Positions 276 to 21,800 of a DNA stretch of 24,000 nt are shown here, in pieces. The notes under the pieces are model-generated. The model did no database searches and was not told the origin of the DNA. It saw only the letters and a list, made by a program, of their open reading frames with translations. The position numbers and the translations under genes were made by a program. Source of the stretch: a bacterium. Its GTDB lineage: Bacteria > Zhuqueibacterota > Zhuqueibacteria > Oceanimicrobiales > Oceanimicrobiaceae. Each line of letters begins with the position of its first letter. The first letter of the stretch is position 1. The DNA lies in the NCBI GenBank assembly GCA_046757165.1, contig JBHHXT010000042.1, positions 6,177 through 30,176 on the forward strand, in the 5' to 3' direction.

Positions 276-576
276 AGGCGACCACGCCCTTGCTCAGGAT
301 TTCAGTCAGAAAGGGCTCTACCCTGCTCGCCGCGCGCTGTATTTCGGCCGGGGTTCGCACGACGATATCTATAGGAGCCGGCCTTGGGGCTAGCAAGCGG
401 GAAATGTGACGAATTCTTTCCGCCCCCACGAGGGGGGTCTCCCAGACCACGAGCAGGTCGATATCGCTGTCCTCATTGGCATCCCCATAGGCGTGTGACC
501 CGAAGAGGATTACTTTTTCGGGAGACACCCCGGCCACGATCTTGTCAACGATATCCTCGAGTAGTCGCTTTTCCAT
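262..576 (-). CDS. MNT-type minimal nucleotidyltransferase (antitoxin partner of HEPN)
   Basis: 104 aa. VILFGSHAYGDANEDSDIDLLVV carries the GS...DxD motif of pol-beta-superfamily nucleotidyltransferases. Small size and a 14-nt overlap with the downstream HEPN reading frame fit the MNT-HEPN arrangement. Confidence 0.85.
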   Translation of the reverse strand: MEKRLLEDIVDKIVAGVSPEKVILFGSHAYGDANEDSDIDLLVVWETPLVGAERIRHISRLLAPRPAPIDIVVRTPAEIQRAASRVEPFLTEILSKGVVAYERR

Positions 577-671: not shown

Positions 672-1031
672 TCAGGCTGACCCATGCCCTTTTTCCAACA
701 ACAGCAGCAATTCATCCATGCTGAAGGGCTTGGTCAGGTAGGCATAGGCGCCTGATTTGATCGCCATCTGTGCGGATTCAGTGGTTCCGTAGGCCGTCAT
801 CACGATCACGATGGCCTCCGGTTGAAGCTTCTTGATTCGTTGCAACAAGGTGATGCCATCCATGCCGGGCATTTTCAGGTCGGTCAGGACGACATCGAAC
901 GGCTTCTTATCCAGCAGTTCCAGGGCCGCAAAAGGGGAGTCCACCGCTGTCGATTCATAGCCAGCATCTTGTAAATCATCTTGCAGTGAAATCCGCTGGA
1001 TTTCTTCATCCTCAACAATTAGAATTCGCAT
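672..1031 (-). CDS. stand-alone response-regulator receiver (REC) domain protein
   Basis: The track ORF is 672-1118. I place the start at the internal ATG (1031), giving MRILIVEDEE. It has the acidic pocket, a phospho-acceptor Asp in VVLTDLKMPGMDG, Thr in MTAY and Lys in TKPF. The stop follows the receiver directly, so there is no output domain. By hand alignment 77 of 114 positions are identical to the receiver of the bEBP at 8110-9513. Confidence 0.85.
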   Translation of the reverse strand: MRILIVEDEEIQRISLQDDLQDAGYESTAVDSPFAALELLDKKPFDVVLTDLKMPGMDGITLLQRIKKLQPEAIVIVMTAYGTTESAQMAIKSGAYAYLTKPFSMDELLLLLEKGHGSA

Positions 1032-1192
1032 GTTGGGCTGCTTCCTGTTCCCTCTCGTCACACGTCGAGGGGTACAGAAGGCTTGCATGATTTGGCGTAA
1101 ACGCAAACTGATTGGCATCGAAGGAACAAGTCAACGCGTTCAGGTGTTGAGAAGCTTGTACACCGACCCGCGGTTAGGACAGCTCAGTTTGG

Positions 1193-1264: not shown

Positions 1265-4200
1265 CTACGTAGCAATCAACTTCACCTGCGTGTCGTAGAA
1301 GGATGACGACCCGCCGATTATGTCTTCCAGACAAACATTCTTCATCACCGGGTCCACTGCCATGACGGCATTGGGGCAGAGGCCGCTTTTCCGGCTCTTG
1401 TCGCCCGGGATTTTCTGATTGTCGATGATGACATCGTTGGCGCCATAGGCCCAGTGGCCAAAATGCCAGGAAATCGCAATGACGCCCGGGCGCATGCCTT
1501 CGATCACTTTGAGCCTGCCTTCCACCGGAATCACGTCACCATTCTTGAGATCCCAGATACCTTCCTGGTTCGTCGCCGAGACGACCCGCACTTTATCGCC
1601 GTCTTTCAGGCCGAGCTGCCAGGCTGTGGCAGAGTTGATGTGGATCAGGTTCTCCGGTAAGATTGCGGCCAACCAGTAGTCAGTCGGTAGTGTGCGTGAC
1701 TGGCCGCCGGTAATCTCCTTATAAGTAATCAGGTGCAACGGATAGTGGCCTTTGTCGAGCGGACGGTCATCAAACCCTTTGACCGGCTCTGCCAGGCCGA
1801 TGCCGGAAAAACGCTTGCCGGTGTAGGGGTGCCGCGTCAGAGCGACGTCCTCCACATAAATGCTGAACATTTTCTTGAAAGGGTGCGGCTGCTTGTCGCC
1901 GCTGTTGCGGTACTTGTCGAAGTCTTCAAAGCGGCCGCCGCGGTTCAGGACATAGACCACCTTTTTCCACCAATGTTTGCCGTTTGCGTCAATCGCGGCG
2001 CGCTTGAGCCTGTTCGGGTCCAGCACTGCCGGCGACAGGTGCTTGCGCGCATCCATGAAGACCTTTATTTCGTTTGCATCTGCGTCCGGGACAGCCTGGC
2101 CGGGTTTGTCGCCGGCCGCAATATTGGCAAACATTTTCACGTAGTAATCTTCCGGTCGGGTGAAGTCCATGCCCGGGCCAAAGCCATCCTTGCCGTGGCC
2201 CGGCAATTTCAATCTTTCCGCAACGGCCAACATGATCGCTTCCATACTGACCGGCATTTCTTCGCCATAAACGGTCACCTTCTCGACCAGCGGTTCTACC
2301 GTAGGTTGGCGAACCTTGGACTGCAGGACCGGGCAGGCGGGCGTCGTGTGCGGCGTGCCCCAGCGCTCCCAGACGGCCGTATCCGGAAAGATATAATCGG
2401 CATACATGGAAGTTTCGCCGATCACGATATCGCAGGCAAAGTAGAGCGGCACCTTGTCGAAATCCAGCAGGGTCTTGATCACGCGGTCGCCTGCAGGCGT
2501 GGATAACACAGGCGTACCTTTGTGCGTGAAAAGCGCTTTGATCGGGTAGGGGTAGCCATCCTCTGCTGAAGGCAGGATCTCCTGGTAAATCTCGTTGGAG
2601 TGCGGAAACCAGGGTCGTTTTGCCGGATAACCGTGCTCGCGAAACAAAGTGCTTTCCTCATATTTTGCTTTTTCACGGGTGATCTTGTAGCCGCAGGCGG
2701 TCAATTTGCCCGGATGCAGGCTCTTTTTCAAATTGAACGGCTGGCCTTTTTTGCTGCCGTCTTCATGCCAATGGCTGCCGCCCTTGGAAAGACCGCCTTT
2801 CCAGTCCGGGTTGCCGACCAGCAGGTTGAGCGTGATGATGGCCTGCGCGTTGTAGTAGCCATTGGTATGCTGCACTGGCCCGCGGTAGAGCTCGGCCACC
2901 GATTTCTTGCCGTGCCTGGCAAATTCAACCGTCAGCTCAACGATGTCTTCTACCTCAAGGCCGCAAAGCTCGGCCCACTCGTCCATGGACTTGTTCCTGG
3001 CATAATCTGTCAGAATTCGGAATGCTGATTTCACCTGAACTTTGCCGACCTTACCGCTATAAAAGAGGTCGCCTTCGATAGCTTTCTTCTCGTCGTAGGG
3101 GTTGAAGGCCAGGGGACTGCCGTTGCGCATGACAACAAACTCATCCTTGCCGCCACGGCCAATGTCGGCAGCGCGCAGCAATCCGGCCGGGCCATCTTTT
3201 TCAATTTTGACCAACCAGGTGGCGTTTGACCATGTCGTTTCACTGTCCTGCCTGGCGGCGGCTTTGTTGGCATTGGTCAAATAGGTTTTATCATACTTGT
3301 CATTCTCCAACATCCAGCGGATCATCGCATTCGCGAGTGCGGCGTCTGTGCCCGGTTTGAGTGGCAGCCACTTCCACGCCTTGGCAGCGGTCTTTGAGAG
3401 TCGCGGATCGACTACAGCAATCTTCAGTCGGCCCGTGACCAGATTGTTGGTGACCAAGTTACTCAGATATGGCGGCCCAAAACTGGCATCAAACGGGCTG
3501 GTGCCGAAGAAGACAACAAACTCGCTGTTGTAGAGATCCGGTTTCATGTGGTGCTTCCCTTTGCGCCACTTGCCGTCCTTAAATTGTTCGGTCATCTTTT
3601 CATAAGCAATGTGGTGCGACTGCTCGCAAATCGAGGTGTGCAAATGATAGTTGGTGCTGCCAAAACCATTGTACAACCACCTCTTGCTGAACTCTTTGCG
3701 GCCGTGTTCAACGCGGCCCCCCAGAAAAACAAACTGATTGTTCACCGGTCCAAAATCAGGATGGTTCGGGTCGATCAGTGTACTGAGGTGGTCGCGATAT
3801 TTTGCCTTGAACGCCTTCACGGTCATCTTGCCCTTGCCGACATTTTTTGCGTCGACGGCCATCGCTTTTGACACTTTAGCGTCGCGCAGTCTAAACAAAT
3901 CTTGCAGGCCCGGCACCACGCGGTTTTCTTCGCCCGGCACATTGGCAAAGAGCTTGCCGCCAGTGACGATTTCCAAAATCGCCTGTTCAAAGGGCACCAC
4001 CTGCCATTTGTTCTGGCCGCGTTTGCCGGCACGCTTCAGCACTTTGGTTATGCGGTACGGATCATAAAGACTCTGGATGCCTGCCTGTCCCTTCGGACAA
4101 ATCCCGCCATCGACCTTTGCCGCTGATTTGATGTTGGTGGCATAGGGCAGAGCAGGATTCAGCGTCTGCATGCCGTAAGGATTGCCGTCCACTTTTGCCG

Positions 4201-4444
4201 CCACGCCATCCAGGACCTTAACCTTGATGGGACAGGCTGTGTGACACTGCAAGCAGACCGAGTAGATGACGTTTTCAGCGTTCCCCAGCGGGTATTCCCC
4301 CGCGGCTGCGTACGCCTCCGATACTTTACCACAACTCGAAAGCGTCTGTGCGACTATGCCGGTACCGCCCAGCAACGCCGTCGTTTTGAAAAACTCACGG
4401 CGGCTCAAGCCCCTATTTTCAGGTTGGTTATTGCCATTTTTCAT
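1265..4444 (-). CDS. Tat-exported molybdopterin (bis-MGD) oxidoreductase catalytic subunit, TtrA-like; substrate unknown
   Basis: 1059 aa. Twin-arginine motif SRREFFK. N-terminal [4Fe-4S] motif CLQCHTAC...GGICPKG (CX2CX3C...C). Candidate Cys molybdenum ligand in HTSICEQSHH near aa 273. Its length, the long insert between the FeS motif and the Cys ligand, and blocks such as KRAGKRGQNKWQVVPFEQAI and MIRWMLEND match my memory of Salmonella TtrA. ATGA start/stop overlap with the upstream membrane-subunit gene. Confidence 0.9.
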   Translation of the reverse strand: MKNGNNQPENRGLSRREFFKTTALLGGTGIVAQTLSSCGKVSEAYAAAGEYPLGNAENVIYSVCLQCHTACPIKVKVLDGVAAKVDGNPYGMQTLNPALPYATNIKSAAKVDGGICPKGQAGIQSLYDPYRITKVLKRAGKRGQNKWQVVPFEQAILEIVTGGKLFANVPGEENRVVPGLQDLFRLRDAKVSKAMAVDAKNVGKGKMTVKAFKAKYRDHLSTLIDPNHPDFGPVNNQFVFLGGRVEHGRKEFSKRWLYNGFGSTNYHLHTSICEQSHHIAYEKMTEQFKDGKWRKGKHHMKPDLYNSEFVVFFGTSPFDASFGPPYLSNLVTNNLVTGRLKIAVVDPRLSKTAAKAWKWLPLKPGTDAALANAMIRWMLENDKYDKTYLTNANKAAARQDSETTWSNATWLVKIEKDGPAGLLRAADIGRGGKDEFVVMRNGSPLAFNPYDEKKAIEGDLFYSGKVGKVQVKSAFRILTDYARNKSMDEWAELCGLEVEDIVELTVEFARHGKKSVAELYRGPVQHTNGYYNAQAIITLNLLVGNPDWKGGLSKGGSHWHEDGSKKGQPFNLKKSLHPGKLTACGYKITREKAKYEESTLFREHGYPAKRPWFPHSNEIYQEILPSAEDGYPYPIKALFTHKGTPVLSTPAGDRVIKTLLDFDKVPLYFACDIVIGETSMYADYIFPDTAVWERWGTPHTTPACPVLQSKVRQPTVEPLVEKVTVYGEEMPVSMEAIMLAVAERLKLPGHGKDGFGPGMDFTRPEDYYVKMFANIAAGDKPGQAVPDADANEIKVFMDARKHLSPAVLDPNRLKRAAIDANGKHWWKKVVYVLNRGGRFEDFDKYRNSGDKQPHPFKKMFSIYVEDVALTRHPYTGKRFSGIGLAEPVKGFDDRPLDKGHYPLHLITYKEITGGQSRTLPTDYWLAAILPENLIHINSATAWQLGLKDGDKVRVVSATNQEGIWDLKNGDVIPVEGRLKVIEGMRPGVIAISWHFGHWAYGANDVIIDNQKIPGDKSRKSGLCPNAVMAVDPVMKNVCLEDIIGGSSSFYDTQVKLIAT

Positions 4445-5733
4445 TCGTAGGCCTCCTTCAATTTGTCGGTCGTTTGGGATGGGACTACCCTGACCGCAGC
4501 GGTCTCAGTATCGATGATTGGCAAAATCGATTTGCCGGCCATGAAGATGAACGCCGGTACTCCGATCGTGAACAAAAAAAGAAACCATTCCATCACGCTG
4601 GGAAAGTAGTCGAATGTCAGGCCCGGCCCGGTAAAGGCATGCTTCAACCCTTCGAGCTCGGGGACGGCCAACGCAGGAATAACGATGTTCAGTCGTACCG
4701 AGATGAAGCTGAAGGCGATCAGCGCTCCGGCGGTGCCTACTGCTGTGACTGACCGTGACCGTGATAGCAGCAACAAGCCGGGAATGACGACGCCCGTGCC
4801 AACATGCACGAACCAAAACACCCACCAGAAATTTCCGAACAAAACGAGTTTCAAACTTTCGCTTTCGGATGGCACGGAGCTCCAGAGACCGATGGAGAGT
4901 TCTGCCCATTCCAGCAGAACATCGGTGGCCAACAGAACGAGAACGATGCGGCCCAGCAGTCTGACGATCTTTCGATTTTCCTCCGTATTGCCGTTTGCAC
5001 CCCACACCGCGACAACGAAAGCGAGAAGTGCGGCACCAGAAGTCAATGCGCCGGCAAGGAAGATAATCGGGGTCAGGCCGGAATTCCAGTAAGGCCGAGC
5101 GCCGACAGCGCCGAAGATCGCCCCGACCGAGCCGTGAAACGCGACGGCCAGCGGAATGCCGATGCTGCCAAGAATCTTCAGGACGTTCAAGTCTTTTTCG
5201 TGAGAATATTCCTGGCGACGGTTCGGGTCGAAGCCGATGAGCTTGCAAATAAAAGTATTGGGCGTTTTGGTGTCGGCCTTCTGTACCAGGTCGGCCCGCA
5301 AGGCAAATCTGAACTCAATCAGGAGTAGAATGAAGTAGGAAGCGTACAACCAGGCCATCCAGCCCATGACGGAAGTAAAGTTTGTCTGTGTGAGCATCCG
5401 CCAGACGCGGCTCATGTGACCCAGGTCCAGCCAGATAGCCAACATCGCGCCAACCAGCGTGGCCAGGGCGGTCAGCAGCGCCAGCCGGCCGATCTTTTCG
5501 AATGCCTTGATCCGAAACACGTACACCAGCGCGGACATCAGGAAGGCGCCGGCAGAGAGCCCGATCAAGTAAATGTATCCGGCAACCCACAATCCCCACG
5601 GCACGTAGGAGCCATAGTTTGCGTTGATGTGGCCATTTGTCAGGCGGTCAAAAAGTCCAACCAGCCCGACCATCAATGCTGCGATCGTGAGTCCCCAGAA
5701 AAATCTGTTCCGGGAATTCTCTTGCGTTTTCAT
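4441..5733 (-). CDS. NrfD/PsrC-family integral membrane quinol-interacting subunit (TtrC-like)
   Basis: 430 aa, highly hydrophobic with about 10 predicted helices. NrfD-like N-terminus (YVPWGLWVAGYIYLIGLSAGAF). AGGAG Shine-Dalgarno sequence ahead of the ATG. Sits between the FeS and Mo subunits. Confidence 0.85.
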   Translation of the reverse strand: MKTQENSRNRFFWGLTIAALMVGLVGLFDRLTNGHINANYGSYVPWGLWVAGYIYLIGLSAGAFLMSALVYVFRIKAFEKIGRLALLTALATLVGAMLAIWLDLGHMSRVWRMLTQTNFTSVMGWMAWLYASYFILLLIEFRFALRADLVQKADTKTPNTFICKLIGFDPNRRQEYSHEKDLNVLKILGSIGIPLAVAFHGSVGAIFGAVGARPYWNSGLTPIIFLAGALTSGAALLAFVVAVWGANGNTEENRKIVRLLGRIVLVLLATDVLLEWAELSIGLWSSVPSESESLKLVLFGNFWWVFWFVHVGTGVVIPGLLLLSRSRSVTAVGTAGALIAFSFISVRLNIVIPALAVPELEGLKHAFTGPGLTFDYFPSVMEWFLFLFTIGVPAFIFMAGKSILPIIDTETAAVRVVPSQTTDKLKEAYE

Positions 5734-5745
5734 TTCATTCTCCTC

Positions 5746-6711
5746 TCATAGCAGATAGTGAACTTTTGGCTTGGTGCCCATTTCTTCTTTCAAATGCGTC
5801 ACGTTGGGCTTGCCCATCAGCTCTGCCACCAAACTCCGGGGATCGTTGGCATCGCCAAAGAAGGTCGCGCGTCCGATACAAGTCACAACGCATTCTGGCA
5901 GCATCCCTTTCTCGATTCTGTGCACGCAGAAGTGGCACTTGCGGGCGTTGCCAATGGGTGATTTGTTGTCGACGCGCGGTCTTGCTTGACCGTAGTCATA
6001 AGTCGGGCTTTCTTCGTAGACACGCGCATTGTCGCCGCCGACATAGGCAAACGCAGCTTTCGGCGCATTTTCGGTATAAAAGCGGCCGGTGTCAAACGTG
6101 CGCGCACTGTAGGGACAGGCTGTGATGCAGTAGCGACAGCCGATGCACTGATCGTAGTCGATGTGGACGATGCCATCCGGACGCTTCCAGGTTGCACTCA
6201 CGGGGCAGACGGGTACGCACGGCGGCTCTTCACACTGCATGCAGGGCCGTGGTGTGAACCGGTGTGTCACGTTGGGAAATGTGCCGATCTCTTCTTCCAT
6301 CACCGGCCGGTAGACCACGCCGGGCGGCAGCTTGTTCTCTGCCACGCATGAGACGGTACAGCTATGGCAGCCCGTACACTTGCGCAGATCAATGACCATC
6401 GACCATTTGCGCTTCTCTATCGGTTTTGCCAGCGCCCGCTTCAGGTCGCGGATCATGCGGATAATCGGGTCCTCGTCTGGCATGGGCTCTGGCAGGTCGG
6501 GAAAATCAATCGGCGCTACCTCCGGTTCTGCCGTCTCTGCCAAAGCCGAAAATTTTTTGTCCACGACCATCGGCAGCAACATGGAAGCAAATACGCCCGT
6601 GCCGAATTTTTTCAAAAAACCGCGACGGTCCTCTTCCGCCTCGCCTCGCTCAGCGCTCACAGGCTCCGTCGAATCTTCTATCTGCAAAAGCTTTGTTTTT
6701 TCGTCAGTCAT
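5746..6711 (-). CDS. four-cluster [4Fe-4S] electron-transfer subunit with its own Tat signal (TtrB/PsrB-like)
   Basis: 321 aa. Tat signal [23 protein letters not shown]...SALA. Four Cys groups: [37 protein letters not shown] and CHFCVHR...CVVTC. Confidence 0.9.
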
Positions 6712-6802: not shown

Positions 6803-7819
6803 CTAAAACTTATAGTAAAATGAAAATCGCGGAATAATATCGCTGTCCGGACTTACGCCGGCGTCATTTTCGCTGTAGAAGACGGCTTCAATATTGGGCA
6901 TCAAATGGATGTTTTTGGCGGGCTGGAAATCCAGGCCGCCGACAAAAAATGTCGACTTTGCGGACGCGTCAAATGGAATGTAAGATATCTTGGCGCCGGA
7001 GGGGTTCGGATCGAACATGCGGTCGATTCTCGCGAAGCCCCAGACTTTCTCCGATAGTTTGGCCACGGCGAACAGAGAGCCGACTTGCAGGGTCATGTCA
7101 TCTGCGCCCGCTACCTGGCGATTCTGGTGCGCAAACTGAACGCCAACGCGGAACGTTTTTTTGTCATAGCCGGCAAATCCTTGCAGGGTGTAACGGTTGG
7201 TTTCGCCGGGGCGTTCTTCGAAGTCGACATAGCCTTCGATGATGAAGCCGGCTTCTGTCTTTGCGCTCACGCTGAACATCGCTTTCTTGCCCTCATTGTT
7301 CTCGGTGCCGTTGCTGGAGCCGTTACCCAGGAGCAGGTGGTATTTGACGCGCTTGTTAGAATCAAGCGTGCCTTTCACGCCAATGCCGAAATCTCGCGAT
7401 GACCCCAGTTTTTGCAAATCAAGCGCCGTCTTCTCAACCGACCGGTAACCCCAGAATTTCTCGACCAGGCCCCAGGTTGGGGTGCCGGAAATGCCCAGGT
7501 AGATACTGTGCTTGCCCTTTTTCCACTTCAAGTAAGCATCTTTGACAACGGGAGTCATTTTGTCTTTGCCGGTGAAATTCCCCGCGCTGCTCATCTCGAG
7601 GCGAAGGCGCATCGAGAAGGCCTCACTCAACCCTTTGTCGAATGCGAAGTAGATACGCCGCATCCAAAACCCATTTGCGCCTTCCAAATCCTCGTTGTGG
7701 TTAGCGGCCATGTAGTAGTAATCGCCAAACATGTAACCGCTGATTTTGCCGCTATCCTGGGCAAAAAGCGGAGCAGTCAATATCAGCATGGAAATGAGAA
7801 TAAGGGCGTGCTTTTTCAT
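6803..7819 (-). CDS. outer-membrane beta-barrel porin, possibly of the anion-selective OprO/P-like type
   Basis: 338 aa. Sec signal MKKHALILISMLILTAPLFA-QD. Alternating amphipathic beta-strand pattern. C-terminal aromatic residue (FSFYYKF). Strong GGAGGA Shine-Dalgarno sequence. First gene of the operon. The subfamily assignment is only an impression. Confidence 0.7.
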   Translation of the reverse strand: MKKHALILISMLILTAPLFAQDSGKISGYMFGDYYYMAANHNEDLEGANGFWMRRIYFAFDKGLSEAFSMRLRLEMSSAGNFTGKDKMTPVVKDAYLKWKKGKHSIYLGISGTPTWGLVEKFWGYRSVEKTALDLQKLGSSRDFGIGVKGTLDSNKRVKYHLLLGNGSSNGTENNEGKKAMFSVSAKTEAGFIIEGYVDFEERPGETNRYTLQGFAGYDKKTFRVGVQFAHQNRQVAGADDMTLQVGSLFAVAKLSEKVWGFARIDRMFDPNPSGAKISYIPFDASAKSTFFVGGLDFQPAKNIHLMPNIEAVFYSENDAGVSPDSDIIPRFSFYYKF

Positions 7820-7901: not shown

Positions 7902-7917
7902 ATCAAAGGCTGTACCA
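7902..7917 (-). promoter_or_regulatory. candidate sigma-54 (-24/-12) promoter for the porin-reductase operon
   Basis: The minus strand reads TGGTAC-AGCCT-TTGAT, against the consensus TGGCAC-N5-TTGCW. GG-N10 spacing is correct, but the -12 element is GA instead of GC. It lies 83-98 nt upstream of the porin ATG and 99-133 nt downstream of the tandem palindromes. Weak on sequence alone. Confidence 0.3.
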
Positions 7918-8015: not shown

Positions 8016-8050
8016 CGTCGAAATTTCGGCGGCTAGACGTCGAAATTTCG
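8016..8050. promoter_or_regulatory. two identical palindrome-containing sites; candidate enhancer (UAS) for the adjacent NtrC-family activator
   Basis: CGTCGAAATTTCG occurs twice without mismatch, at 8016-8028 and 8038-8050. Each copy contains the perfect 10-bp palindrome CGAAATTTCG. The 22-bp spacing puts both copies on about the same helical face. They sit between the activator stop (8110) and the porin start (7819). Confidence 0.45.
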
Positions 8051-8109: not shown

Positions 8110-9513
8110 TCACGCCGGGATTGTTCCGCTCGCCCCGGGCTGGTCTTCCGCGGGGTTTTGATACTCGATACCATGTTTGTTGATTTTGCTTTTCAAGGTC
8201 GACGTGGGAATGCTGAGAAGTTCTGCTGCTTTGGCCTTGTTGCCGCCCGTCTTCGCCAGCGCCTGAGAAATAAGAGCTTTTTCAAGATCGGCGACAGTGG
8301 CTTCGAGCGCTAAAGGTTTGTCCATCTCATTTGGGGCCGGCCTGACCCCGAACCTCCGCTCACGGATTTCACCGGGAAGGCAGTCCGGTACGATAGGGTT
8401 GCACCGGCAGGAGAGCATCAGCCGTTCAACCACGTTTTTGAATTCACGCACATTGCCTGGCCAGGAATAATCCATCAAATCCTGATAGACTCGTGGGTCG
8501 ATTTCAGGGATTTCCCCTTGCCGAAATTCGCGGACAAAATGTGTGAAGAAAAGCTGAATATCTTCTTTGCGCTCTCTAAGGGGTGGCAGTTTGATAGGAT
8601 AAATGTTCAAACGATAAAAAAGGTCTTCACGGAACCGGCCCTTGGCAACGAGCTCACGCAGATTGCTTTTGGTCGCCGCGATGACACGGACATCGATCTT
8701 GAAGGTTTCGGTGCCCCCCACCCGTTCAAACGTGCGTTCTTCTAAAACCCGTAGTAGTTTGACTTGTAATTCTATCGGGATATCGTCCACTTCGTCGAGG
8801 AAGATGCTGCCGCCGCTGGCGAGCTCAAACCGTCCCCTCTTTTGTTTTACGGCCCCGGTGAAGGCGCCGCGCTCGTGACCGAAGAGTTCGCTTTCCAAGA
8901 TGTCCTTGGACAGCATGGCGCAGCTCACCTTGATGAACGGCTTGTCTTTACGTGGCGAGTTGTAATGAATGGCGTTGGCGACCATCTCCTTGCCTGTGCC
9001 GGTTTCCCCTTCGATGAGGACGGTCGCCTCAGTGGGGGCGACAATCTCGAGCTGCTTGTAGATTTCTCGCATGGCGTTGCTCTTGCCGATGAGTTGGCCA
9101 AATGAATATTGTCTCTCCAACTCTTCTTTGAGTCTAATATTCTCAGCGACCACCCGGCGATAATCTTTTACTCTTTCCAACAACAACAGCATCTCATCCA
9201 TGCTGAAGGGTTTGGTGAAGTAGTCATACGCGCCAGACTTCATGGCTTGCACGGCTGTTTCTACGGTGGCGTAAGCGGTCATCATGATCACCGTGGTGTC
9301 CGGTTGAATTTCCCTTATTTTCTTCAGCAACGTGATGCCGTCGATACCGGGCATTTTCAAATCGGAAATGATAACATCGAATGATTCCTTTGCCATCAGG
9401 TTGAGCGCCGCCCGGGCGGATGCGGCCGCCGCGGTTTCATACCCGGCGTCTCGCAAATCGTCTTGCAACGAGACACGCTGGATTTCTTCGTCCTCTACAA
9501 TCAGGATCTTCAT
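8110..9513 (-). CDS. sigma-54-dependent response regulator (NtrC-family bacterial enhancer-binding protein)
   Basis: The track ORF extends to 9609. I start it at MKILIVEDEE (ATG 9513), 16 nt after the kinase stop. It has a REC domain (ISDLKMPGIDG), an AAA+ domain with Walker A GETGTGKE and the sigma-54 contact motif ESELFGHERGAFTGA, and a C-terminal Fis-type HTH (GNKAKAAELLSIPTSTLKSKI). Confidence 0.9.
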   Translation of the reverse strand: MKILIVEDEEIQRVSLQDDLRDAGYETAAAASARAALNLMAKESFDVIISDLKMPGIDGITLLKKIREIQPDTTVIMMTAYATVETAVQAMKSGAYDYFTKPFSMDEMLLLLERVKDYRRVVAENIRLKEELERQYSFGQLIGKSNAMREIYKQLEIVAPTEATVLIEGETGTGKEMVANAIHYNSPRKDKPFIKVSCAMLSKDILESELFGHERGAFTGAVKQKRGRFELASGGSIFLDEVDDIPIELQVKLLRVLEERTFERVGGTETFKIDVRVIAATKSNLRELVAKGRFREDLFYRLNIYPIKLPPLRERKEDIQLFFTHFVREFRQGEIPEIDPRVYQDLMDYSWPGNVREFKNVVERLMLSCRCNPIVPDCLPGEIRERRFGVRPAPNEMDKPLALEATVADLEKALISQALAKTGGNKAKAAELLSIPTSTLKSKINKHGIEYQNPAEDQPGASGTIPA

Positions 9514-9529
9514 GTTCACCCTATCCGGA

Positions 9530-11584
9530 TCAATGCCCGATCGCGTCTGGCCGCAGGAGTTTCTGAGCTCGAGCCAGCTCATCAGGTGTATTGACATTGA
9601 GAAAAGCATGCCTGGAATAGAACACCAATCCCGGTTCCATGCGTACGATGCGCGTCCTCACCTTGTCATAGAATTGAGAGACTTTGTGTTCCCCCAGTTC
9701 AATCTGCGCCTTGATAACGGGAAGACATTTCTTCTTATAGACCGCGCACAGGGGCTCGACGCCTGATTCGGACTCGAACGCGAGGACGTCATAGGGAGCA
9801 CAATTCTCGCACAGGAAGCGGATGAGCTGCCGGGACAAGAATGGCAGGTCGCAGGCAACAACCAGACAGTGCTCCGTTTGTGAGCGCTGCAACGCGGTAT
9901 AAATCCCTGCCAGTGGGCCGAAGTTTGCGACCGCATCCGGATACACTGGCAAATTGAGAAATCTGTACTCCTGCTGCTGGTTGCTGATAACCACGATCTG
10001 CTCGAACTGTTCCCTGAGGCTATCGACAACACGCGCGATCATGGGTTTGCCGTCAACGAACAGCAGCGCCTTGTTCTGCCCCATGCGAGACGATGTTCCA
10101 CCCGCCAGAATCGCAGCGCTGACATCTTGGCTGCTCATCCCCGAAAGCGATTTCGCGGAGGGGAACATGACACGAAATACCGTACCAGTGCTGCTGCTGG
10201 TGAAGCAAATCTGTCCTTTATGTTCATCGATGATTTCTTTCGTGACCGCAAGCCCCAGTCCGGTTCCCTTGCCGCTAGGCTTGGTCGTAACAAAAGGGTC
10301 GAAGATAGAATGCTTGATTTCGAGAGGAATGCCCTTTCCAGTATCCTTCACATCCACTAATACACCATTTTCGGTGGCCTCAGAAACAACGCTAATTTGA
10401 CCGCCTTCGTCGGTCGCGTCGACCGCATTCAACAGCAGGTTGACAAACACCTGCTCGAGATGTTGGGCATCTCCCAGGATCGTTGGTAAGTCTTTTGAGA
10501 GCGACAGGTCTAACCGCACGCGCTGTTTCTTGAGTCGGAGTTCCACCAGGTGGCAGGAGGCGGTAATGATATCATTCACCGCAATCGGTTGAAACATGAT
10601 CTCTTTTTTGCGGGAGAAATTCAACAAATCCCGGATGATATTCTCGATGCGAAGCAACGCGCTATCCATCAGTTTGGCATATTTCTTTGTCTGGGCGGCA
10701 TCCCTTGGACTGGCGATAATCCGACGCAGGCAATTTCGAATGCCGGCAAGAGGATTGTTGATCTCGTGTGCCAGACCTGAAACCAGCGTGCCGATCGCAG
10801 CAAGTTTCTCCGTTTGGATGAGCGCCTTTTGTTGGTGATCCTGCTCCTCGGCGGCGGTTCTCAAGCGGCCGAGCATGTCTTCGAAACCACGCTCGAGTTC
10901 GCCGATCTCATCCCGGCGCTTCCCCGCGATGTTGGCCTCATAGGTCGGAACTTCGACTTTTGCCATCTCTGTCGCCAGCTTCTTGATGGGGCTGGCCAAC
11001 GTGCGGGCAACCAAAGATGCAATCAGAACGCCCACAACAGCGAATGCAAGACTGACGATGAACATCCAGCGCTTGAACGCGTCAGCCCGGCCAAATTCTG
11101 ACTGACGGCTGAACTGCATCAAAAGTGTACCGAGCCGCTTGCCGCTATTCTCGAGCGGATAAGCGATTTGAAAGACCGGGTCTTCCCTGTCCTGTACTAT
11201 CTGTGGCTGAGCAAGAGCCATCCACCGCTGCGCCGCCTGCGACTCTTTGTCCTGGATGTATTGCCGATGATCGTCGCTCGCCAGGACGCCACCGGACGCG
11301 TCAACAACCATAACGTGTGTGACCGCGGCCATGGAATTAGCCAGCAGATCCTGGATGTAGTTGTTCAAAAGTCCATCCTCCTCAATCAGGCCCCGCTCCT
11401 GATACAAAAGCGTATTAGTGAACGAAATGGCGGCGGACGCAGCCAGGACAAGGGCCCGCCTTTCGGCCTCGGAGAAAAGCTGATTGCGATAAACATCCAC
11501 GATGAAAATGTTTGCGACAAAACTGCAGGCGGCTATGATCGCAGAGGCCAGGCCGATGAACTTCCTTTCCAGAGTCAAGCGCAT
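9530..11584 (-). CDS. membrane sensor histidine kinase fused in-frame to a C-terminal MobA (molybdenum cofactor guanylyltransferase) domain
   Basis: 684 aa in one ORF. Order of parts: TM1 (aa 9-30), an extracytoplasmic segment of about 140 aa, TM2 (aa 173-193), HAMP, HisKA with H-box SGLAHEINNPL (His273 at nt 10766-10768), and HATPase_c (NLLLNAVDA, DTGKGI, GTGLGL). A short linker is followed by MobA motifs at aa 483-684 (nt 9533-10138): AILAGGTSSRMGQNKALL, FGPLAGIYTAL, VVACDLPFLS and FLNVNTPDELARAQ. Confidence 0.9.
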   Translation of the reverse strand: MRLTLERKFIGLASAIIAACSFVANIFIVDVYRNQLFSEAERRALVLAASAAISFTNTLLYQERGLIEEDGLLNNYIQDLLANSMAAVTHVMVVDASGGVLASDDHRQYIQDKESQAAQRWMALAQPQIVQDREDPVFQIAYPLENSGKRLGTLLMQFSRQSEFGRADAFKRWMFIVSLAFAVVGVLIASLVARTLASPIKKLATEMAKVEVPTYEANIAGKRRDEIGELERGFEDMLGRLRTAAEEQDHQQKALIQTEKLAAIGTLVSGLAHEINNPLAGIRNCLRRIIASPRDAAQTKKYAKLMDSALLRIENIIRDLLNFSRKKEIMFQPIAVNDIITASCHLVELRLKKQRVRLDLSLSKDLPTILGDAQHLEQVFVNLLLNAVDATDEGGQISVVSEATENGVLVDVKDTGKGIPLEIKHSIFDPFVTTKPSGKGTGLGLAVTKEIIDEHKGQICFTSSSTGTVFRVMFPSAKSLSGMSSQDVSAAILAGGTSSRMGQNKALLFVDGKPMIARVVDSLREQFEQIVVISNQQQEYRFLNLPVYPDAVANFGPLAGIYTALQRSQTEHCLVVACDLPFLSRQLIRFLCENCAPYDVLAFESESGVEPLCAVYKKKCLPVIKAQIELGEHKVSQFYDKVRTRIVRMEPGLVFYSRHAFLNVNTPDELARAQKLLRPDAIGH

Positions 11585-11749
11585 GACATAAACTCACAGG
11601 GTTTGTTCCGAGGGTTCGCTTGTTGCAGCCCTCGTTGTATCGCTGTCGAGAACAGTAGATAATTAGAATATTTGACGAGAAAATCAAGAGGGAAGCAACA
11701 CGCAGGAACGATCTTCGCGGATTTGGGCCTGGCGCTCCACCTTTGTGAG

Positions 11750-11777
11750 TCAAGTAGAAGATGTGATTGGCCGATAA
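11750..11777 (+). promoter_or_regulatory. candidate sigma-28 (FliA-type) promoter upstream of the HPt gene
   Basis: TCAAG-N15-GCCGATAA. The -10 element matches the GCCGATAA consensus exactly. The -35 element is TCAA/CAAG rather than TAAA. It lies about 65 nt upstream of the ATG at 11842. Confidence 0.4.
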
Positions 11778-11841
11778 GTCCTAGGATGAATTTCACCTCA
11801 AAGAGAGCATTCGTAAAACATTGAGCAAATGGTGTTCGGTC

Positions 11842-12195
11842 ATGAGTGAGACAACGACAATCGACGTAACTGTTATTGAACAGCTCAAAGAGCTGGTTGA
11901 CGACGAAGATCCCGATTTCCTGACAGATCTTTTTCAAGAATACCTCGAGGACGTCACAACCCACCTCTCGAAGCTGGTCCAATCGATCGAAGCGATGGAT
12001 ACGGTAACCGTGGTGAAAACGGCTCACACGCTCAAAGGCGCAAGCAGCAACCTGGGAGCCAGGCACATGGCTGAGCTTTTCACGGAGTTAGAGAAGACGG
12101 CGAAAAGGGAGGATGCGGATGGCGCCAGGAAGCTTCTGTCAGAACTGCAGAAAGAATTTGGCAACGTCCGGAAGGCCATGAGTGCTTACTTATAG
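11842..12195 (+). CDS. single-domain histidine phosphotransfer (HPt) protein
   Basis: The track ORF starts at a TTG (11821). I prefer the ATG at 11842 (MSETTT). HPt signature KTAHTLKGASSNLGA, with the phosphorylatable His at nt 12025-12027. All-helical composition, about 117 aa. Confidence 0.8.
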   Translation: MSETTTIDVTVIEQLKELVDDEDPDFLTDLFQEYLEDVTTHLSKLVQSIEAMDTVTVVKTAHTLKGASSNLGARHMAELFTELEKTAKREDADGARKLLSELQKEFGNVRKAMSAYL

Positions 12196-12278
12196 CCTCT
12201 ATCTGCAAGCCACAAGCGTGCAGCTTCACGCGTTCTTCTCCTGAACGACATTCTCGAAAAAATAGGATGAATTCGTTG

Positions 12279-12297
12279 AAAAAGGCGTACAACGCCC
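12279..12297 (-). terminator. possible intrinsic terminator of the flagellar operon
   Basis: The minus strand reads GGCGT-TGT-ACGCC followed by TTTTTC, about 65 nt after the flgM-like stop. The stem is only 5 bp, so this call is weak. Confidence 0.35.
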
Positions 12298-12362
12298 TTG
12301 AGGTCACGATGGAGGGAGATTTCTATGTACTCCTGGCCGTCAGGTTGGGGCCAGCCCTGGCT

Positions 12363-12707
12363 CTAGAGTCCCACGATATCGTCTAACTCGCCACTGTTCA
12401 GAAGTTTTTGCGCAGCCTCTTCAACGATCTTTTCGCTGGAATAGAGGCCTGCTTTGATCTTGGCCAACGCTTCATAAATCACGTGTGCCCGAGACGATGG
12501 CAGTTTGGCCAGCAACTCCTTTGAAACAGTGAACTCATCTCTGGACTTCTGAAGCTCATGGGCTTCCTGAGAAATCTGCACCTGATCGCTCTTGACACTG
12601 GTCGCCCTTTTTGACTCCTCCTTCTGGACTTTTCGATCGCGGACATCGTTAACCGGCTTGTCCGGTTTCTTAGGAGGACCGATGCCGTACAAATCTTGGA
12701 TTTTCAT
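12363..12707 (-). CDS. flgM: anti-sigma-28 factor FlgM-like protein
   Basis: 114 aa, charged and probably disordered N-terminal half. VQISQEA resembles the FlgM V-x-L-S motif. C-terminal ALAKIKAGLYSSEKIVEEAAQKLL matches the FlgM pattern I-x-x-G-x-Y-x-V/S-x-x-x-I-A-x-K-L-L. GGAGG Shine-Dalgarno sequence. Last gene of a flagellar operon. Confidence 0.6.
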   Translation of the reverse strand: MKIQDLYGIGPPKKPDKPVNDVRDRKVQKEESKRATSVKSDQVQISQEAHELQKSRDEFTVSKELLAKLPSSRAHVIYEALAKIKAGLYSSEKIVEEAAQKLLNSGELDDIVGL

Positions 12708-14620: not shown

Positions 14621-14962
14621 TCAGTGCTGCGTTGGTTGAGAAGTACCTTCCGGTGCTGGCAGTATCTTTTCCCATGTCGAACGTAACCCAATCAGAATAT
14701 CCAGAACCTCACAAAACCTGTCTTCTTCGAGAACTCTGAGTGAGAATTCGTATAAATCATAGAACGATTTTGCAATTTCGTAGTAGTCGAAGTTCAGTGC
14801 CGCGGTCAACTCATGGAGTACCTTCCTGACTTTTTCCTTGTCCCCGGCGTGGCAGGCAGCGATTCCCAAATCGTACAGTTTTAGGATGATGATCTCTGGC
14901 TTCGAACATTCCACAAGCGATTCCATTACCTGACCTTCTGATTGTTGATTTACCAACTGCAT
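14621..14962 (-). CDS. fliS: flagellin-specific export chaperone FliS (copy 2)
   Basis: 113 aa. IIILKLYDLGIAAC...VLHELTAALNFDYYEIAKSFYDLYEFSL...LIGLRSTWEKI follows the FliS pattern (LMLYDG...II.EL...LN.E.GGEIA.NL..LY.Y....L..L..AW). Confidence 0.85.
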   Translation of the reverse strand: MQLVNQQSEGQVMESLVECSKPEIIILKLYDLGIAACHAGDKEKVRKVLHELTAALNFDYYEIAKSFYDLYEFSLRVLEEDRFCEVLDILIGLRSTWEKILPAPEGTSQPTQH

Positions 14963-14980
14963 TACGAAGTCACCCGTCCT

Positions 14981-15319
14981 CTAGTTCTCGAGATCCCGAC
15001 ATCCCAGAACGGCAGATTCCCAGACATCGCGCAGCCCTTCGAATATCATCAGCGCATTTTCGAATTTTTGAGAATGCACCTGGTCTAACGCGAAACGATA
15101 CAACTGAAAAAAGGTCAAGGCTATCTCCTTATGATCGAAATTCAGCGCCGCGATCAACTCAACCAAAACCCTGGCTGCGCCCGTCCTGTCCCTTGCGCGG
15201 CACCTCTTGACACCGAGGTCAAAGAGCATCAGAATCAATTTTTCGGGGCTCGCGGTCTTGAGCTGCTGTCTCAAATACGGATTCCTGGTGCCCTGATGGT
15301 CGGCAAGCTGTATAGCCAT
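14981..15319 (-). CDS. fliS: flagellin-specific export chaperone FliS (copy 1)
   Basis: 112 aa. NPYLRQQLKTASPEKLILMLFDLGVKRC...LVELIAALNFDHKEIALTFFQLYRFAL...FEGLRDVWESA is a classical FliS N-terminus and core. Roughly 40 percent identical to copy 2 by eye. Confidence 0.85.
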   Translation of the reverse strand: MAIQLADHQGTRNPYLRQQLKTASPEKLILMLFDLGVKRCRARDRTGAARVLVELIAALNFDHKEIALTFFQLYRFALDQVHSQKFENALMIFEGLRDVWESAVLGCRDLEN

Positions 15320-18554: not shown

Positions 18555-18802
18555 TCGTTAGTCGTTTTCGAAATAGAAATCAAGCGCCGTCAGGACCTGT
18601 GCACAGAAATATAGCAATGGCCTGCAACAATTGCAACCACTTTGTCCTGTGCCGGGGCAGCTATTGCAATTCGTCAATCATTCTTGCCTGCCGGCAACTG
18701 GTATGATGATTCTGATAAATCTTTGTTTTTCTGATAGTTTTACCGATTCATTAAGGTGGATTATTGCACAGGATGGCCTGCGAGAAAGGACGCTCATAAA
18801 GA

Positions 18803-21800
18803 ATGAAAAGGTGGTTGCTCTCCTCAGTCGTGTTGATTGGGGCCTGCCTGCTGATCTTCAAGAATTTTCCTTCCGGACACTCACAACCAAACCAGGCCCA
18901 GAAGTTTGCGACCGGGAGCCCGGAGGACCCGGAAGCACGGGCCCGGTTCGAAAAGATGCGTTTGCAGGACCCGCGGACCCGGAGCATCCCGCCTGGAATT
19001 CGCGCAGCGGAATTGCGATTTGTCAGGACCCTCCCGAAAACAGGGTCTGTCGCCCTCGACCCGGGAGGTGGACATTCTCATAGCCGACCGTTGAGATGGC
19101 AGCAGCGTGGCCCGTCCAATATTAGCGGACGAACGCGCGCCCTCGCCTATGATGTTTCCAATCCAAACATCATCCTGGCCGGGGGAGTCACCGGCGGCAT
19201 GTGGCGTTCCCTCGATGGCGGCCAGAGCTGGGTGCGGACAACCGGTGCTCAGCAACACCCTTCGGTCACCGCTCTGGTTCAGGATGTCCGTCCGGGCAAG
19301 ACAAATGTCTGGTATGTTGGCAGCGGAGAACGCAAAGGCAACAGCGCCAGCGCTGGCGGTGCTCTTTTCATGGGCGACGGCATTTTCAAATCAACAGACG
19401 GCGGTGCCTCCTGGCGCTTGCTGCCGGCCACGGCTTCGGGTCAGCCGCAGAGATTCGATAACTTCTTCGACTATGTCTGGAATCTGGCCACCGATGCTTC
19501 GAATCTCCAGCAAGACGAAGTTTACGTGGCCACTCATAACACCATCCGGCGCAGCCTGGACGGCGGCGCGACATGGCAAATCGTTCTGGGCGACCGCTCT
19601 CTGACGAGCCACTATGCCGACGTCGCCGTGACCTCTACCGGAGTCGTTTACGCAGCCTTCGGCAGCGGCGGGTCGACAAAAGGCCTCTGGCGTTCCACGG
19701 ATGGCGCGCCGCAAAACTGGACTGAAATTACGCCCGCCGGCTGGTCGGCGGCCTACAATCGCATCGTCATGGGCATTGCGCCCTCGAACGAAGCCGTCGT
19801 TTATTTTCTGGTGGAAACACCGTGGGATGGTGCGCTGAAACATCAGTTGTGGCGCTACACTTACCTCGGGGAGGATGGCTCCGGGGCAGGCGGCGAGTGG
19901 CTGAACCTGACCGAGAACTTGCCGGCATTCGGCTCTCCAGTCGGCAATTTTGACTCCCAAGATTCCTATGATATGCTGGTGCGCGTACACCCGCAGCAAG
20001 AAAATGTCGTCTTTCTCGGCGGCACCAATCTTTACCGCTCGAGCGATGGCTTCCTGACCAGCGAAGCCATTGCCTGGATCGGGGGATATGCTCCGGCAAA
20101 CAATGTCACCTCTTACAAAGGTCACCACCCCGACCAGCACGCGCTCGCCTTCCATCCTCAGCAGCCCAACGTGATGCTTTCCGGCCACGATGGCGGCATC
20201 AGCATCACCCACGATAACCTGGCCGAAACCGTCATGTGGGACTCCCTGAATCACGGCTATGTCACGACGCAGTTCTACACCATCGCGCTGGACCCTGCCA
20301 CGCCTGGCAGCGATCTTCTCATCGGCGGGATGCAGGACAACGGCACCTGGCTCAGCAAGGATTCCGATGGTGGCGTGCCCTGGACTCCGGTGTTTGCCGG
20401 CGACGGGGCTTTCTGCGCCCTGGCGCCTGGCGGCGACACCTGCTATGTTTCAGTTCAGCTCGGTACGGTTTTTCGTCTGGCCCTCGATGGTTCAGGCCAC
20501 GTGCTCTCATCTGCGAATGTGACCCCTGCTGATGCAACGGGCTTCTTGTTTATCAATCCCTTTGTTCTGGATCCGCATGACGCCCACGTCATGTACCTTG
20601 CGGCCGGCAACCGTGTCTGGCGCAACCACGATCTGAGCCGCATTCCGGCATCTGAGCAAAAAACCCTGGTCAACTGGAGGCCGGTTGCAAAGATTGCAGA
20701 CTCGGACGCCAGGGTGACAGCACTCGGCATCTCGCGGGAACCGGCAAACCGGCTTTACTACGGCACCAATGATGGCCGCGTCTATCGCGTCGATAACGCA
20801 GCGCGGAACCAGACAACACCAGGGTTGGTGAGCGGTGAGGACGAGCTGCCCGCAGCTTACATCAACTGCATCGCAGTCGACCCCACAGACGCAGATCGAG
20901 TGGCCGTGGTCTTTTCGAACTACAATGTGCCGAGCCTGTTCTTCTCGGCCGATGGGGGAGAAACCTGGCAGCAGGTCAGCGGCAATCTGGAGGAATTCCC
21001 GGATGGTTCTGGCAGCGGGCCGTCAACGCGGTGGATGGCAATTGTGCCACAGGGGAACGCGACGCATTATTTTGTCGGCACCAGCACCGGGCTGTATTCC
21101 ACGACATCCCTCGATGGCCCGGCCACAGTCTGGATTCAGGAGGGGGCGACCACCATTGGCAACGCCGTGGTAGCCATGGTCGCTGCCCGTCTCCCGGACG
21201 GCCTGGTGGTGGCCGCGACTCATGGACGCGGGGTGTTCGCTGCGCGGCTCGCTGCGCGCACAAATGTTGAATTCACTTCGTTTGAGGCAGAGCTTCTCCC
21301 CGGCACGTTCGACGTAAGGCTCGCCTGGCGAACGGCGGCTGAGCTGAACACGGCCGGCTTTGAAATCGAAAGACGAGAAGACAACCAGGAGGCCTGGGCG
21401 ACGATTGGATTTGTGCCGGGAACCGGCACGGTTGCCGGCGGCGAATATGTGTTCGTCGATGACGTCACCTCTCTGATTGCAAGGAACGTGGCCGAGGTTT
21501 CGTATCGGTTGAAACATGTTAGCCAGGACGGGACCGCAGAGCTCTCGCACGAGATCGTGGTGCCGGTGGAGGTGGTGCCGGTCGCGCTGGTTGATTTCAG
21601 CGGCGATCTGCAAAACGAGAGCCTCACGGTGCGGCTGGAATGGCACACGGCACTGGAGGTGCAAAGCAAACGGTTTCTCATCGAAAGAAGGGGCGGCTCC
21701 GGCAACGACGAGTGGCATGAAATCGGCGTCCGCGCCGGCCAGGGCACCACCGATGAACCAAGCCACTACTTGTTTGCTGAAAATGTCGCAGGACTGCATG

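Follow-up and report, generated by a model that had tools for sequence, protein, structure and literature searches.

The window analysed here is a 24,000-nucleotide stretch of contig JBHHXT010000042.1 (assembly GCA_046757165.1, family Oceanimicrobiaceae of the Zhuqueibacterota), and it carries, on the reverse strand, a gene that joins a transmembrane sensor histidine kinase in frame to MobA, the guanylyltransferase of molybdenum cofactor (Moco) biosynthesis. The original prediction, made from the letters of this DNA, had described one uninterrupted 684-codon open reading frame (ORF) with two transmembrane (TM) helices, a HAMP domain, the phospho-acceptor His273 and the N and G boxes of the ATPase domain. 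The ORF listing, the Pfam searches and the hydropathy profile agree with this description; there are no internal stop codons across the 684 aa, and the loop between the helices is about 135 aa long. The gene and the parts of its product, from the N terminus to the C terminus, are as follows.

9530..11584, reverse strand: kinase-MobA gene, 684 codons plus stop, a single ORF (database protein P0001, the same as NCBI MFQ5649937.1)
11486..11563, reverse strand: TM helix 1, aa 8-33 (Kyte-Doolittle 19-aa window, peak 2.2; a helix in the AlphaFold2 (AF2) model)
11081..11485, reverse strand: periplasmic sensor loop, aa 34-168 (about 135 aa), lying between both TM segments by hydropathy
10985..11080, reverse strand: TM helix 2, aa 169-200, continuing into HAMP (hydropathy peak 2.75)
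10856..11014, reverse strand: HAMP domain, aa 191-243 (Pfam PF00672, E=2.1e-10)
10604..10792, reverse strand: HisKA, the dimerization and histidine phosphotransfer (DHp) domain, aa 265-327, with phospho-acceptor His273 (Pfam PF00512, E=1.9e-12)
10157..10474, reverse strand: HATPase_c, aa 371-476 (Pfam PF02518, E=1.4e-24)
10118..10156, reverse strand: linker SAKSLSGMSSQDV, aa 477-489, unconserved in sequence, with a predicted local distance difference test score (pLDDT) <50 at aa 481-485
9533..10117, reverse strand: MobA domain (molybdenum cofactor guanylyltransferase), aa 490-684 (Pfam PF12804, E=2.5e-39; alignment to MobA structures)

All four domain models, HAMP, HisKA, HATPase_c and the MobA-like NTP_transf_3, exceeded their Pfam gathering scores, the last of them over aa 490-640 (E=2.5e-39), as had been anticipated. 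The sensor loop gave a weak match to sCache_3_2, under the gathering score, and was modelled by AF2 as a mixed alpha/beta fold with a pLDDT of 82-92. When 18 fusions were aligned, the H-box, GLAHEINNPL with H273, proved invariant at H273, E274, N277 and P278, and the N, G1, F and G2 boxes were invariant at N382, N386, D414, G416, G418, F428 and G440-G444. The protein has the marks of a class I (HisKA) transmembrane sensor kinase, namely a DHp domain with an H-box, the GHKL boxes, and two TM helices with a loop and a HAMP domain. The best reading of the kinase half is that of a working sensor kinase, predicted to be capable of autophosphorylation and phosphotransfer.

The C-terminal half carries the MobA motifs LAGGTSSRMG (aa 493-502), GPLAG (aa 556-560) and ACDLPFL (aa 577-583) and ends in the tail FLNVNTPDELARAQ. 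Its ~200 aa align end to end with the MobA structures of Aquifex (2E8B, E=3.8e-24) and E. coli (1E5K/1FR9, about 6e-21), with residues 6-193 of the domain aligned against residues 7-192 of E. coli MobA. The alignment to 1E5K/1FR9 pairs the tail with FVNVNTPEELARWQ of the E. coli protein, so that the predicted resemblance of the two C termini holds, as does the claim of a full-length MobA, since the quoted motifs are present and the compared catalytic residues are kept. Among the 18 aligned fusions, G495, G496, K505, D550, G556, P557, L558, G560, D579, N663 and N665 are invariant, and the window protein has equivalents of E. coli G14, G15, R19, K25, D71, G78, P79, L80, G82, D101, N180 and N182. 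At the equivalents of G14, G15, K25, D71, P79, D101, N180 and N182, the fused proteins (n=21) are the same as their stand-alone relatives (n=27). The only exception in the fused set at the compared positions is the R19 equivalent of one protein (P0007); single substitutions occur a few times in the stand-alone set, at the equivalents of G78, L80 and G82; and E. coli G22 and N53 are unconserved in both sets alike. We take the roles of the LAGG-x3-RMG loop, Lys25, Asp71, GPLxG, Asp101 and Asn180/Asn182 to be those of the MobA structure and mutagenesis literature. The fused domain has LAGG and GPLAG and not the MocA-type motifs; presumably, as in the MobA/MocA literature, LAGG/GPLxG goes with guanine specificity and the MocA-type motifs with cytosine specificity. 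One idea put forward earlier, that the domain is a degenerate nucleotide-binding sensor, is disfavoured because no compared residue is degenerate, and we infer that the MobA half is catalytically competent.

The sequences closest to the fused domains are in many cases MobAs that stand alone, in unrelated housekeeping-type contexts. The MobA domain of the window protein matches the stand-alone protein P0121 at 67.8%, versus 66% for its best fused match, and likewise the fused proteins P0004 and P0008 match the stand-alone P0124 and P0135 at 67.7% and 61%, respectively. Given these relatives and their contexts, the fused domain looks like the ordinary MobA of the lineage and not like a diverged paralogue. 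No assembly with both a fused and a stand-alone mobA was found among the best 80 genome loci, and a stand-alone MobA of Calditrichaeota (P0164) was traced to a different assembly.

The genuineness of the fusion was examined at the junction and by its recurrence. The junction DNA contains no stop codon, and Met483, which is preceded by ...CTTTCGGGG, has no spaced Shine-Dalgarno sequence, both as originally reported. Met483 is also peculiar to the window protein, being absent at that position from 17 homologous fusions in the alignment; because this residue is unconserved, internal initiation is not a feature of the family, and an internal start at Met483 was ruled out as a family trait. A search of 5.8 billion proteins returned 18 full-length homologues of 38-62% identity with the same four domains, together with fragments, and no fewer than 20 divergent homologues (38-62% identity), from independent assemblies, share the in-frame junction. 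The identical 684-aa protein is present on three contigs, from an NCBI metagenome-assembled genome (MAG) and from an independent Logan assembly of SRR29324606. This recurrence and the identical protein in independent assemblies confirm that the in-frame fusion is genuine and rule out an assembly artefact or frameshift.

In 20/20 fusions, 43-48 aa separate the G2 box from the LAGG motif, although the linker sequence itself is unconserved. Pairwise distances among the kinase halves are correlated with those among the MobA halves (r=0.91; Mantel test, 0/2000), and the mean identity is 45% for the kinase half and 44% for the MobA half. The constant junction geometry and the co-divergence point to a fusion that arose once, anciently, with its halves later evolving together under similar constraint, and the original reading of a true fusion is upheld. 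AF2 modelling of the full-length monomer from an 18-sequence alignment gave a mean pLDDT of 80.9 and a predicted TM-score of 0.36, with pLDDT values of 85-89 in the ATPase domain, 82-93 in MobA and <50 at the junction (aa 481-485), so that in the model the domains are confident and their relative placement is undefined. Kinases ranked first in a Foldseek search, where the cytoplasmic domain of ZraS (9jfj) had 33% identity to the kinase core, and a solved chain that covers both modules was not among its results.

The architecture is very rare. An HMMER search of 1.84 billion cluster representatives found HATPase_c and MobA together only in P0003, P0008, P0015, P0242, P0244, P0027 and two fragments; the two-domain matches obtained with the HATPase_c+MobA segment were 683-703 aa long and all belonged to one family, and this exhaustive search found no second kinase family fused to MobA. 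Long multi-stretch matches (P0246, P0291) were rejected as further fusions since they are ordinary hybrid kinases, and other matches of odd length were the known FdhD-MobA, MobA-FdhD and MobA-MoeA fusions. When one genome per species was scanned, the fused form was present in 6 of 185,579 species genomes, with one additional truncated remnant; the six comprise a Calditrichaceae MAG, two Neomarinimicrobiota, one MAG labelled Cytophagia and two unclassified genomes, and the hosts of the fusion as a whole are Calditrichota, Marinisomatota and relatives in the Fibrobacterota-Chlorobiota-Bacteroidota (FCB) group. Full-text literature searches found no description of a kinase-MobA architecture, in line with the earlier impression, and the names in the database records are limited to 'HAMP domain-containing protein' and 'NTP transferase domain-containing protein'. 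Each module is of a known kind, as is the regulatory design, and their combination is an undescribed variant that is rare, old and conserved.

The genes and sites on the 3' side of the fusion gene in its direction of transcription, all on the reverse strand, are as follows.

8110..9513, reverse strand: sigma-54-dependent response regulator with receiver (REC), AAA+ sigma-54 interaction and Fis-type helix-turn-helix domains (Pfam Sigma54_activat, E=2.4e-71; Response_reg; HTH_8)
8019-8028 and 8041-8050, reverse strand: pair of CGAAATTTCG palindromes at a distance of 22 bp, putative sites for activator binding, the sole two occurrences in the window
7902..7917, reverse strand: putative sigma-54-type -24/-12 promoter TGGTACAGCCTTTGAT, in a conserved layout
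6803..7819, reverse strand: anion-porin-like protein of the outer membrane, 338 aa, encoded by the operon's first gene, with a signal peptide and the C terminus ...FYYKF
5746..6711, reverse strand: 4Fe-4S subunit (TtrB/DsrO-like) with an RRGFLKK motif (Pfam/NCBIfam)
4441..5733, reverse strand: NrfD/PsrC-type membrane quinol-interacting subunit (Pfam NrfD, E=7.6e-43)
1265..4444, reverse strand: molybdopterin catalytic subunit, using bis-MGD (bis-molybdopterin guanine dinucleotide), TtrA-like, 1059 aa, with the twin-arginine translocation (Tat) signal SRREFFK (Pfam Molybdopterin, Molydop_binding, Molybdop_Fe4S4)

The likely start of the regulator, MKILIVEDE, lies 14 nt past the kinase stop codon, its best matches are AtoC, NtrC and ZraR, and it directly follows the kinase in every related locus. 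The molybdoenzyme subunit that had been placed about 5 kb from the fusion is the one located at 1265..4444. Its assignment to the Ttr/Psr class stands in part: it is TtrA-like, but with 489.5 bits against a cut-off of 1750 in the NCBIfam TtrA model it is not TtrA proper and is describable only as TtrA-like. Orthologous kinase-MobA genes adjoin Psr/Phs-like enzymes; the fusion is therefore not restricted to a single substrate. Because the catalytic subunit carries a Tat signal, it must receive bis-MGD in the cytoplasm before export. The porin-like protein has no Pfam match at default thresholds, and six of its six orthologues match Porin_O_P weakly (best E=1.6e-6); its gene keeps its position in every related locus. 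It is probably an outer-membrane anion channel, to judge from its sequence features, and may be dedicated to the substrate of the enzyme.

Synteny was compared across related loci (L002-L006). The common order in the fused loci is a PhnD-family binding protein, kinase-MobA, the sigma-54 regulator, sometimes TatA, the ~340-aa protein, the Fe-S subunit, sometimes NrfD, the molybdopterin oxidoreductase and sometimes a TorD-like chaperone. TatA genes lie within the operon in L002 and L006 and divergently upstream of it in L005. The binding proteins of the related loci match the PtxB, HtxB, ArrX, AioX and PhnD structures, and their genes are present in all the other fused loci (L002, L003, L005, L013, L017, L019, L022, L029, L038). 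No PhnD-family binding-protein gene was found in the 24-kb window (tblastn E >0.5), the stretch 11585-12400 before the kinase included, and an unfused relative (L012) also has none. Upstream of the kinase the window has instead an Hpt gene in divergent orientation, along with fliD and two fliS of the flagellar system. In L003, a moaA gene (radical SAM plus Mob_synth_C) and a MOSC-domain gene (18627-20270) come after the oxidoreductase and chaperone genes, that is, further cofactor-biosynthesis genes cluster with this fused kinase-MobA locus.

Regulation of the operon by the neighbouring activator, which had been predicted, gained support from the comparison of five independent loci. The window promoter, TGGTAC-N5-TTTGA, lies ~100 bp downstream of the palindromes. 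Palindromes of the CGACGAA-N-TTCGTCG type occur at the equivalent place in L002, L003, L005 and L006, followed ~100-130 bp downstream by TGGYAC-N5-TTTG[CAT], so that five loci including the window share the arrangement. The -12 element is TTTGA here and TTTG[CAT] in the family, not the canonical TTGC, and a single-site match of this kind is at chance level; the argument rests on the conserved layout of palindromes and promoter, by which the view that the sigma-54 regulator drives the porin/oxidoreductase operon is supported. Neither the same -24/-12 promoter nor the palindromes were found before the regulatory genes in the window, and no autoregulation of the kinase-MobA operon through these sites was found. 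Since there is no such promoter before the regulatory genes, kinase-MobA is probably made constitutively, by analogy with aioXSR, which is reported to be constitutively made (PMC6011840). No Moco riboswitch or other RNA element was found at these loci, and a generic scan for sigma-70 promoters and terminators gave nothing above chance.

This organisation resembles the XSR design of AioXSR, ArxXSR and ArrXSR, the regulators of arsenic oxidoreductases (PMC5908839, PMC6011840). The orthologous loci share with these systems the order of binding protein, kinase and sigma-54 regulator, a binding protein of the PhnD/PtxB family that matches the ArrX and AioX structures, a kinase with two TM helices and a periplasmic loop, and a sigma-54 promoter before an operon for a DMSO-reductase-family enzyme. 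They differ in the C-terminal MobA, in the TtrA-like or Psr/Phs-like enzymes in place of Aio/Arx, and in their FCB-group hosts. The window itself has the downstream sigma-54 regulator and the promoter with its sites before the operon, but lacks the binding-protein gene, and the likeness described here is one of design. At one of the related loci (L006, 5349-19092) an unfused kinase stands in the same gene order with an ArrA-like enzyme (1129 bits, full length). Its neighbours are ArsR, an ArsC-like low-molecular-weight phosphatase and a transporter of the SBF/Acr3 type, and the whole has the look of a locus for arsenate respiration, ArrXSR-like, in an organism of FCB type.

Other known systems are more distant. 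The TtrSR-TtrBCA system of Salmonella and Shewanella (PMC5408782) has a similar gene order, ttrB, ttrC and a ttrA-like gene, and a PhnD-like oxyanion sensor. The best NCBIfam matches of the window subunits are TtrA (catalytic) and TtrB (Fe-S), and the membrane subunit weakly resembles TtrC, but the catalytic score of 489 bits is set against a TtrA cut-off of 1750. In TtrS, moreover, the kinase itself contains the binding domains, and TtrR is not known to be a sigma-54 activator. The kinase core has its best matches in AtoS (221 bits) and ZraS (179 bits), but these scores are far under the equivalog cut-offs, and the window protein differs from ZraS/ZraR and AtoS/AtoC in its sensor domain, its regulon and its C-terminal enzyme. 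Stand-alone MobA (E. coli 1E5K/1FRW; Aquifex 2E8B) is matched by the fused domain in the end-to-end alignment, the predicted Rossmann-like fold and the compared residues of the GTP, Mg and molybdopterin (MPT) sites; the differences are that the N terminus is here joined to a membrane kinase and that E. coli G22 and N53 are not kept. Fusions of MobA to a functionally linked partner in one polypeptide are known as MobA-MobB (PRK14489), FdhD-MobA, MobA-FdhD and MobA-MoeA; in these, the partners are cofactor biosynthesis or insertion proteins, whereas here the partner is a signalling protein.

To follow gains and losses of the domain, a neighbour-joining tree of the kinase part was built and bootstrapped (200 replicates). 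The kinases without MobA fell into no fewer than two distinct groups, with bootstrap values of 89.5 and 96, and were monophyletic in 0/200 replicates. They nest in a crown clade with fused proteins (79%), and the deeper branches are all fused. The MobA domain thus appears to have been lost from the kinase at least two times; the exact number of gain and loss events is uncertain. The regulator begins 12 and 116 nt after the kinase in the unfused loci L006 and L012, where no mobA is left, and no adjacent separate kinase and mobA genes were found in these two loci. The possibility that unfused relatives keep the two as split neighbours was ruled out for them, since the regulator directly follows the kinase.

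A truncated form was found in Candidatus Zhuqueibacter pondensis (L018, 5377-6594), where a 405-aa remnant aligns to aa 301-684 of a fused protein. It keeps the second DHp helix, intact ATPase boxes and an intact MobA, but is without the sensor, HAMP and H-box, and the regulator and oxidoreductase are absent nearby, which gives it the look of an intermediate in fission. N-terminal extensions resembling the kinase C terminus and linker were clear on stand-alone MobAs only in contig-end fragments and in P0141, and the extension of P0127 resembles the kinase only weakly. Fission seems to happen, with MobA as the part that survives, which indicates that the value of MobA is independent of the kinase, and the domain losses together with the MobA-only remnant argue against an obligatory coupling of the two. 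At another locus (L010, 1441-3392), a stand-alone mobA (P0123, 61% to the fused domain) lies directly upstream of a homologue of the porin-like gene (65%), with kinase, regulator, oxidoreductase and sigma-54 motif all absent.

The explanation towards which we lean, with rather better than even confidence, is that of a bifunctional membrane protein, a kinase and a guanylyltransferase whose halves are largely independent. Its starting point is what can be observed directly, the architecture, its conservation, the integrity of the residues, the synteny and the conservation of the promoter. The N-terminal 480 aa would be an NtrB/ZraS-type sensor kinase, accompanied in most relatives by a periplasmic binding protein of the PhnD family, and would phosphorylate the adjacent sigma-54 enhancer-binding regulator, which in turn would bind the two palindromes and activate the -24/-12 promoter of the operon for the anion porin and the Tat-exported Fe-S/NrfD/bis-MGD oxidoreductase. 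The C-terminal 200 aa, on their short linker, would act as MobA and turn Mo-MPT (the molybdenum-bearing MPT) and GTP into bis-MGD for the oxidoreductase before its export. The ordinary MobA of the lineage would have been captured once, long ago, into the regulatory operon, and for that reason it would probably be the MobA of the cell and not a signal input. The fusion would mainly ensure constitutive co-production and place the last cofactor step at the membrane. Enzymatic activity, supply of the neighbouring enzyme and independence of the halves are the parts of this explanation that we infer. The biochemistry of MobA and its contact with the chaperone TorD have been described elsewhere (PMC9103625).

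Several points weigh against this explanation. First, the fused domain scores slightly below the NCBIfam MobA cut-offs (PRK00317, 150.3 vs 164 bits; TIGR02665, 138.1 vs 151.85 bits). Six stand-alone MobAs that were scored also fell under the cut-offs, however, and because these relatives do so too, the cut-off does not separate the MobAs of the lineage; three that NCBI names MobA (P0137, P0215, P0172) scored 110-137 and an unnamed one (P0129) 141-157 in the MobA equivalog models, in which the fused domain does as well as most named stand-alone MobAs of related phyla. Second, the view that the fusion is probably the working MobA of the cell rests on the best 80 loci, and MAGs are incomplete. 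Third, the length of the linker is tightly conserved (13-15 aa), as could also be expected if functional coupling imposed a geometric constraint. Fourth, it is not obvious that a fusion of purely neutral value would last through two or three phyla with both halves equally constrained. Fifth, the deep nodes of the tree and the interleaving of fused and stand-alone MobAs have low bootstrap values (36-60%). Sixth, one fused protein of 715 aa (P0007) has a damaged nucleotide loop, LAGG--SQRSLDKAL, in which the R19 equivalent is replaced, and its C-terminal tail is long and acidic; MobA could be decaying here, or the sequence could contain an error.

That MobA is both enzyme and sensor, either with ligand loading feeding back on the kinase or with the kinase gating MobA, is possible, but we consider it unlikely. 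If true, it would mean a protein-based cofactor checkpoint inside a two-component sensor, for which no described precedent was found. The first form, slightly less likely again when taken on its own, holds that MobA, through its occupancy with Mo-MPT, bis-MGD or GTP, tips the kinase/phosphatase balance, so that the operon is induced only if the cofactor can be made, with MobA maybe still catalytic. Such a role would suit the short linker with its conserved length and the 43-48 aa between the G2 box and LAGG in all 20 fusions, the equal constraint and co-divergence of the halves since the ancient fusion, and the intact ligand-binding residues at loci that have no Moco riboswitch. Cofactor loading also precedes Tat export, which would make apoenzyme produced without cofactor wasteful. 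By analogy, only the logic of this proposal is shared with the Moco riboswitch and ModE, which likewise tie enzyme expression to cofactor availability but work by RNA or DNA-binding mechanisms. It has to face, however, the clean loss of the domain at least two times while kinase, regulator and operon stayed, the unconserved linker sequence and the low model confidence at the junction, and a location C-terminal to the ATPase domain that is unusual for input domains. The fused proteins are also the same as the stand-alone enzymes at the compared residues, and in the L018 remnant MobA is retained while the sensor half is gone.

The reverse arrangement, in which the state of the kinase controls MobA through conformation or dimer geometry and bis-MGD is made at the membrane only when substrate is sensed, is in our view improbable. 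The tether to the ATPase domain by a short linker would allow it, MobA works in complexes with chaperones and apoenzymes, and a regulatory role of the nucleotide-attachment step was proposed years ago, although studies of mobAB regulation gave no support (PMC9103625). TorD-like chaperone genes in related operons and TatA genes in (L002, L006) or near (L005) the operon fit the same picture. But MobA has no known phosphorylation or allosteric site, were it the only MobA of the cell, its gating by a single substrate would leave the other bis-MGD enzymes short of cofactor, and the stand-alone orthologues, like the truncated remnant, evidently manage with no kinase.

Just as doubtful is a neutral fusion of an adjacent kinase and mobA that brought no benefit from tethering, or a gene that yields two proteins by way of an internal start at Met483. 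Fusion and fission are apparently easy in this lineage, since fused and unfused forms interleave, a remnant exists and extensions of the P0141 type occur, and other MobA fusions are known (MobA-MobB, FdhD-MobA, MobA-MoeA). Against this, Met483 is unconserved, no locus with separate adjacent kinase and mobA genes was found, and the fusion has persisted down to 38% identity. Finally, that a missed stop, a frameshift or a chimeric assembly joined two genes is a negligible prospect, even though the sequence derives from a MAG, because the identical protein is on three contigs of independent assemblies and the junction recurs in at least 20 homologues and in six species-representative genomes.

The coordination of the last step of bis-MGD synthesis with molybdoenzyme expression, loading and Tat export is only partly understood. 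By joining the nucleotide-attachment enzyme to the sensor that would induce a bis-MGD enzyme, this family offers a natural construct for testing crosstalk between signalling and maturation, one that is stable across Calditrichota, Marinisomatota and relatives. Even with independent halves, the fusion is a Rosetta-stone link from an XSR-type oxyanion sensor to Moco maturation, and it may mean that the sole MobA in these uncultured anaerobes is the tail of a membrane-tethered kinase. Because the records name the fusions only by their HAMP or NTP transferase domains, metabolic reconstructions could score fusion-bearing genomes as being without mobA, which may hide inside the kinase gene.

The rest of the window holds a few further features. 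A gene for a stand-alone Hpt protein (11821-12195, forward strand) diverges from that of the kinase, and just downstream of the oxidoreductase operon lies one for a single-domain receiver protein (672-1118, reverse strand); the two, neither of which was seen in related loci, may form an extra phosphorelay branch. Two tandem FliS-like genes (14621-15319, reverse strand) adjoin fliD, and several small ORFs nearby are without a family match. Near the ends of the window are a small MntA-like nucleotidyltransferase (262-576, reverse strand), possibly the antitoxin of a type VII toxin-antitoxin system, and a PIN-domain protein (22207-22608, reverse strand). A forward-strand gene at 18803-22192 encodes a protein of 1129 aa that has BNR/Asp-box repeats and weakly matches Por_Secre_tail, the sorting domain of type IX secretion, which fits an FCB-group host.

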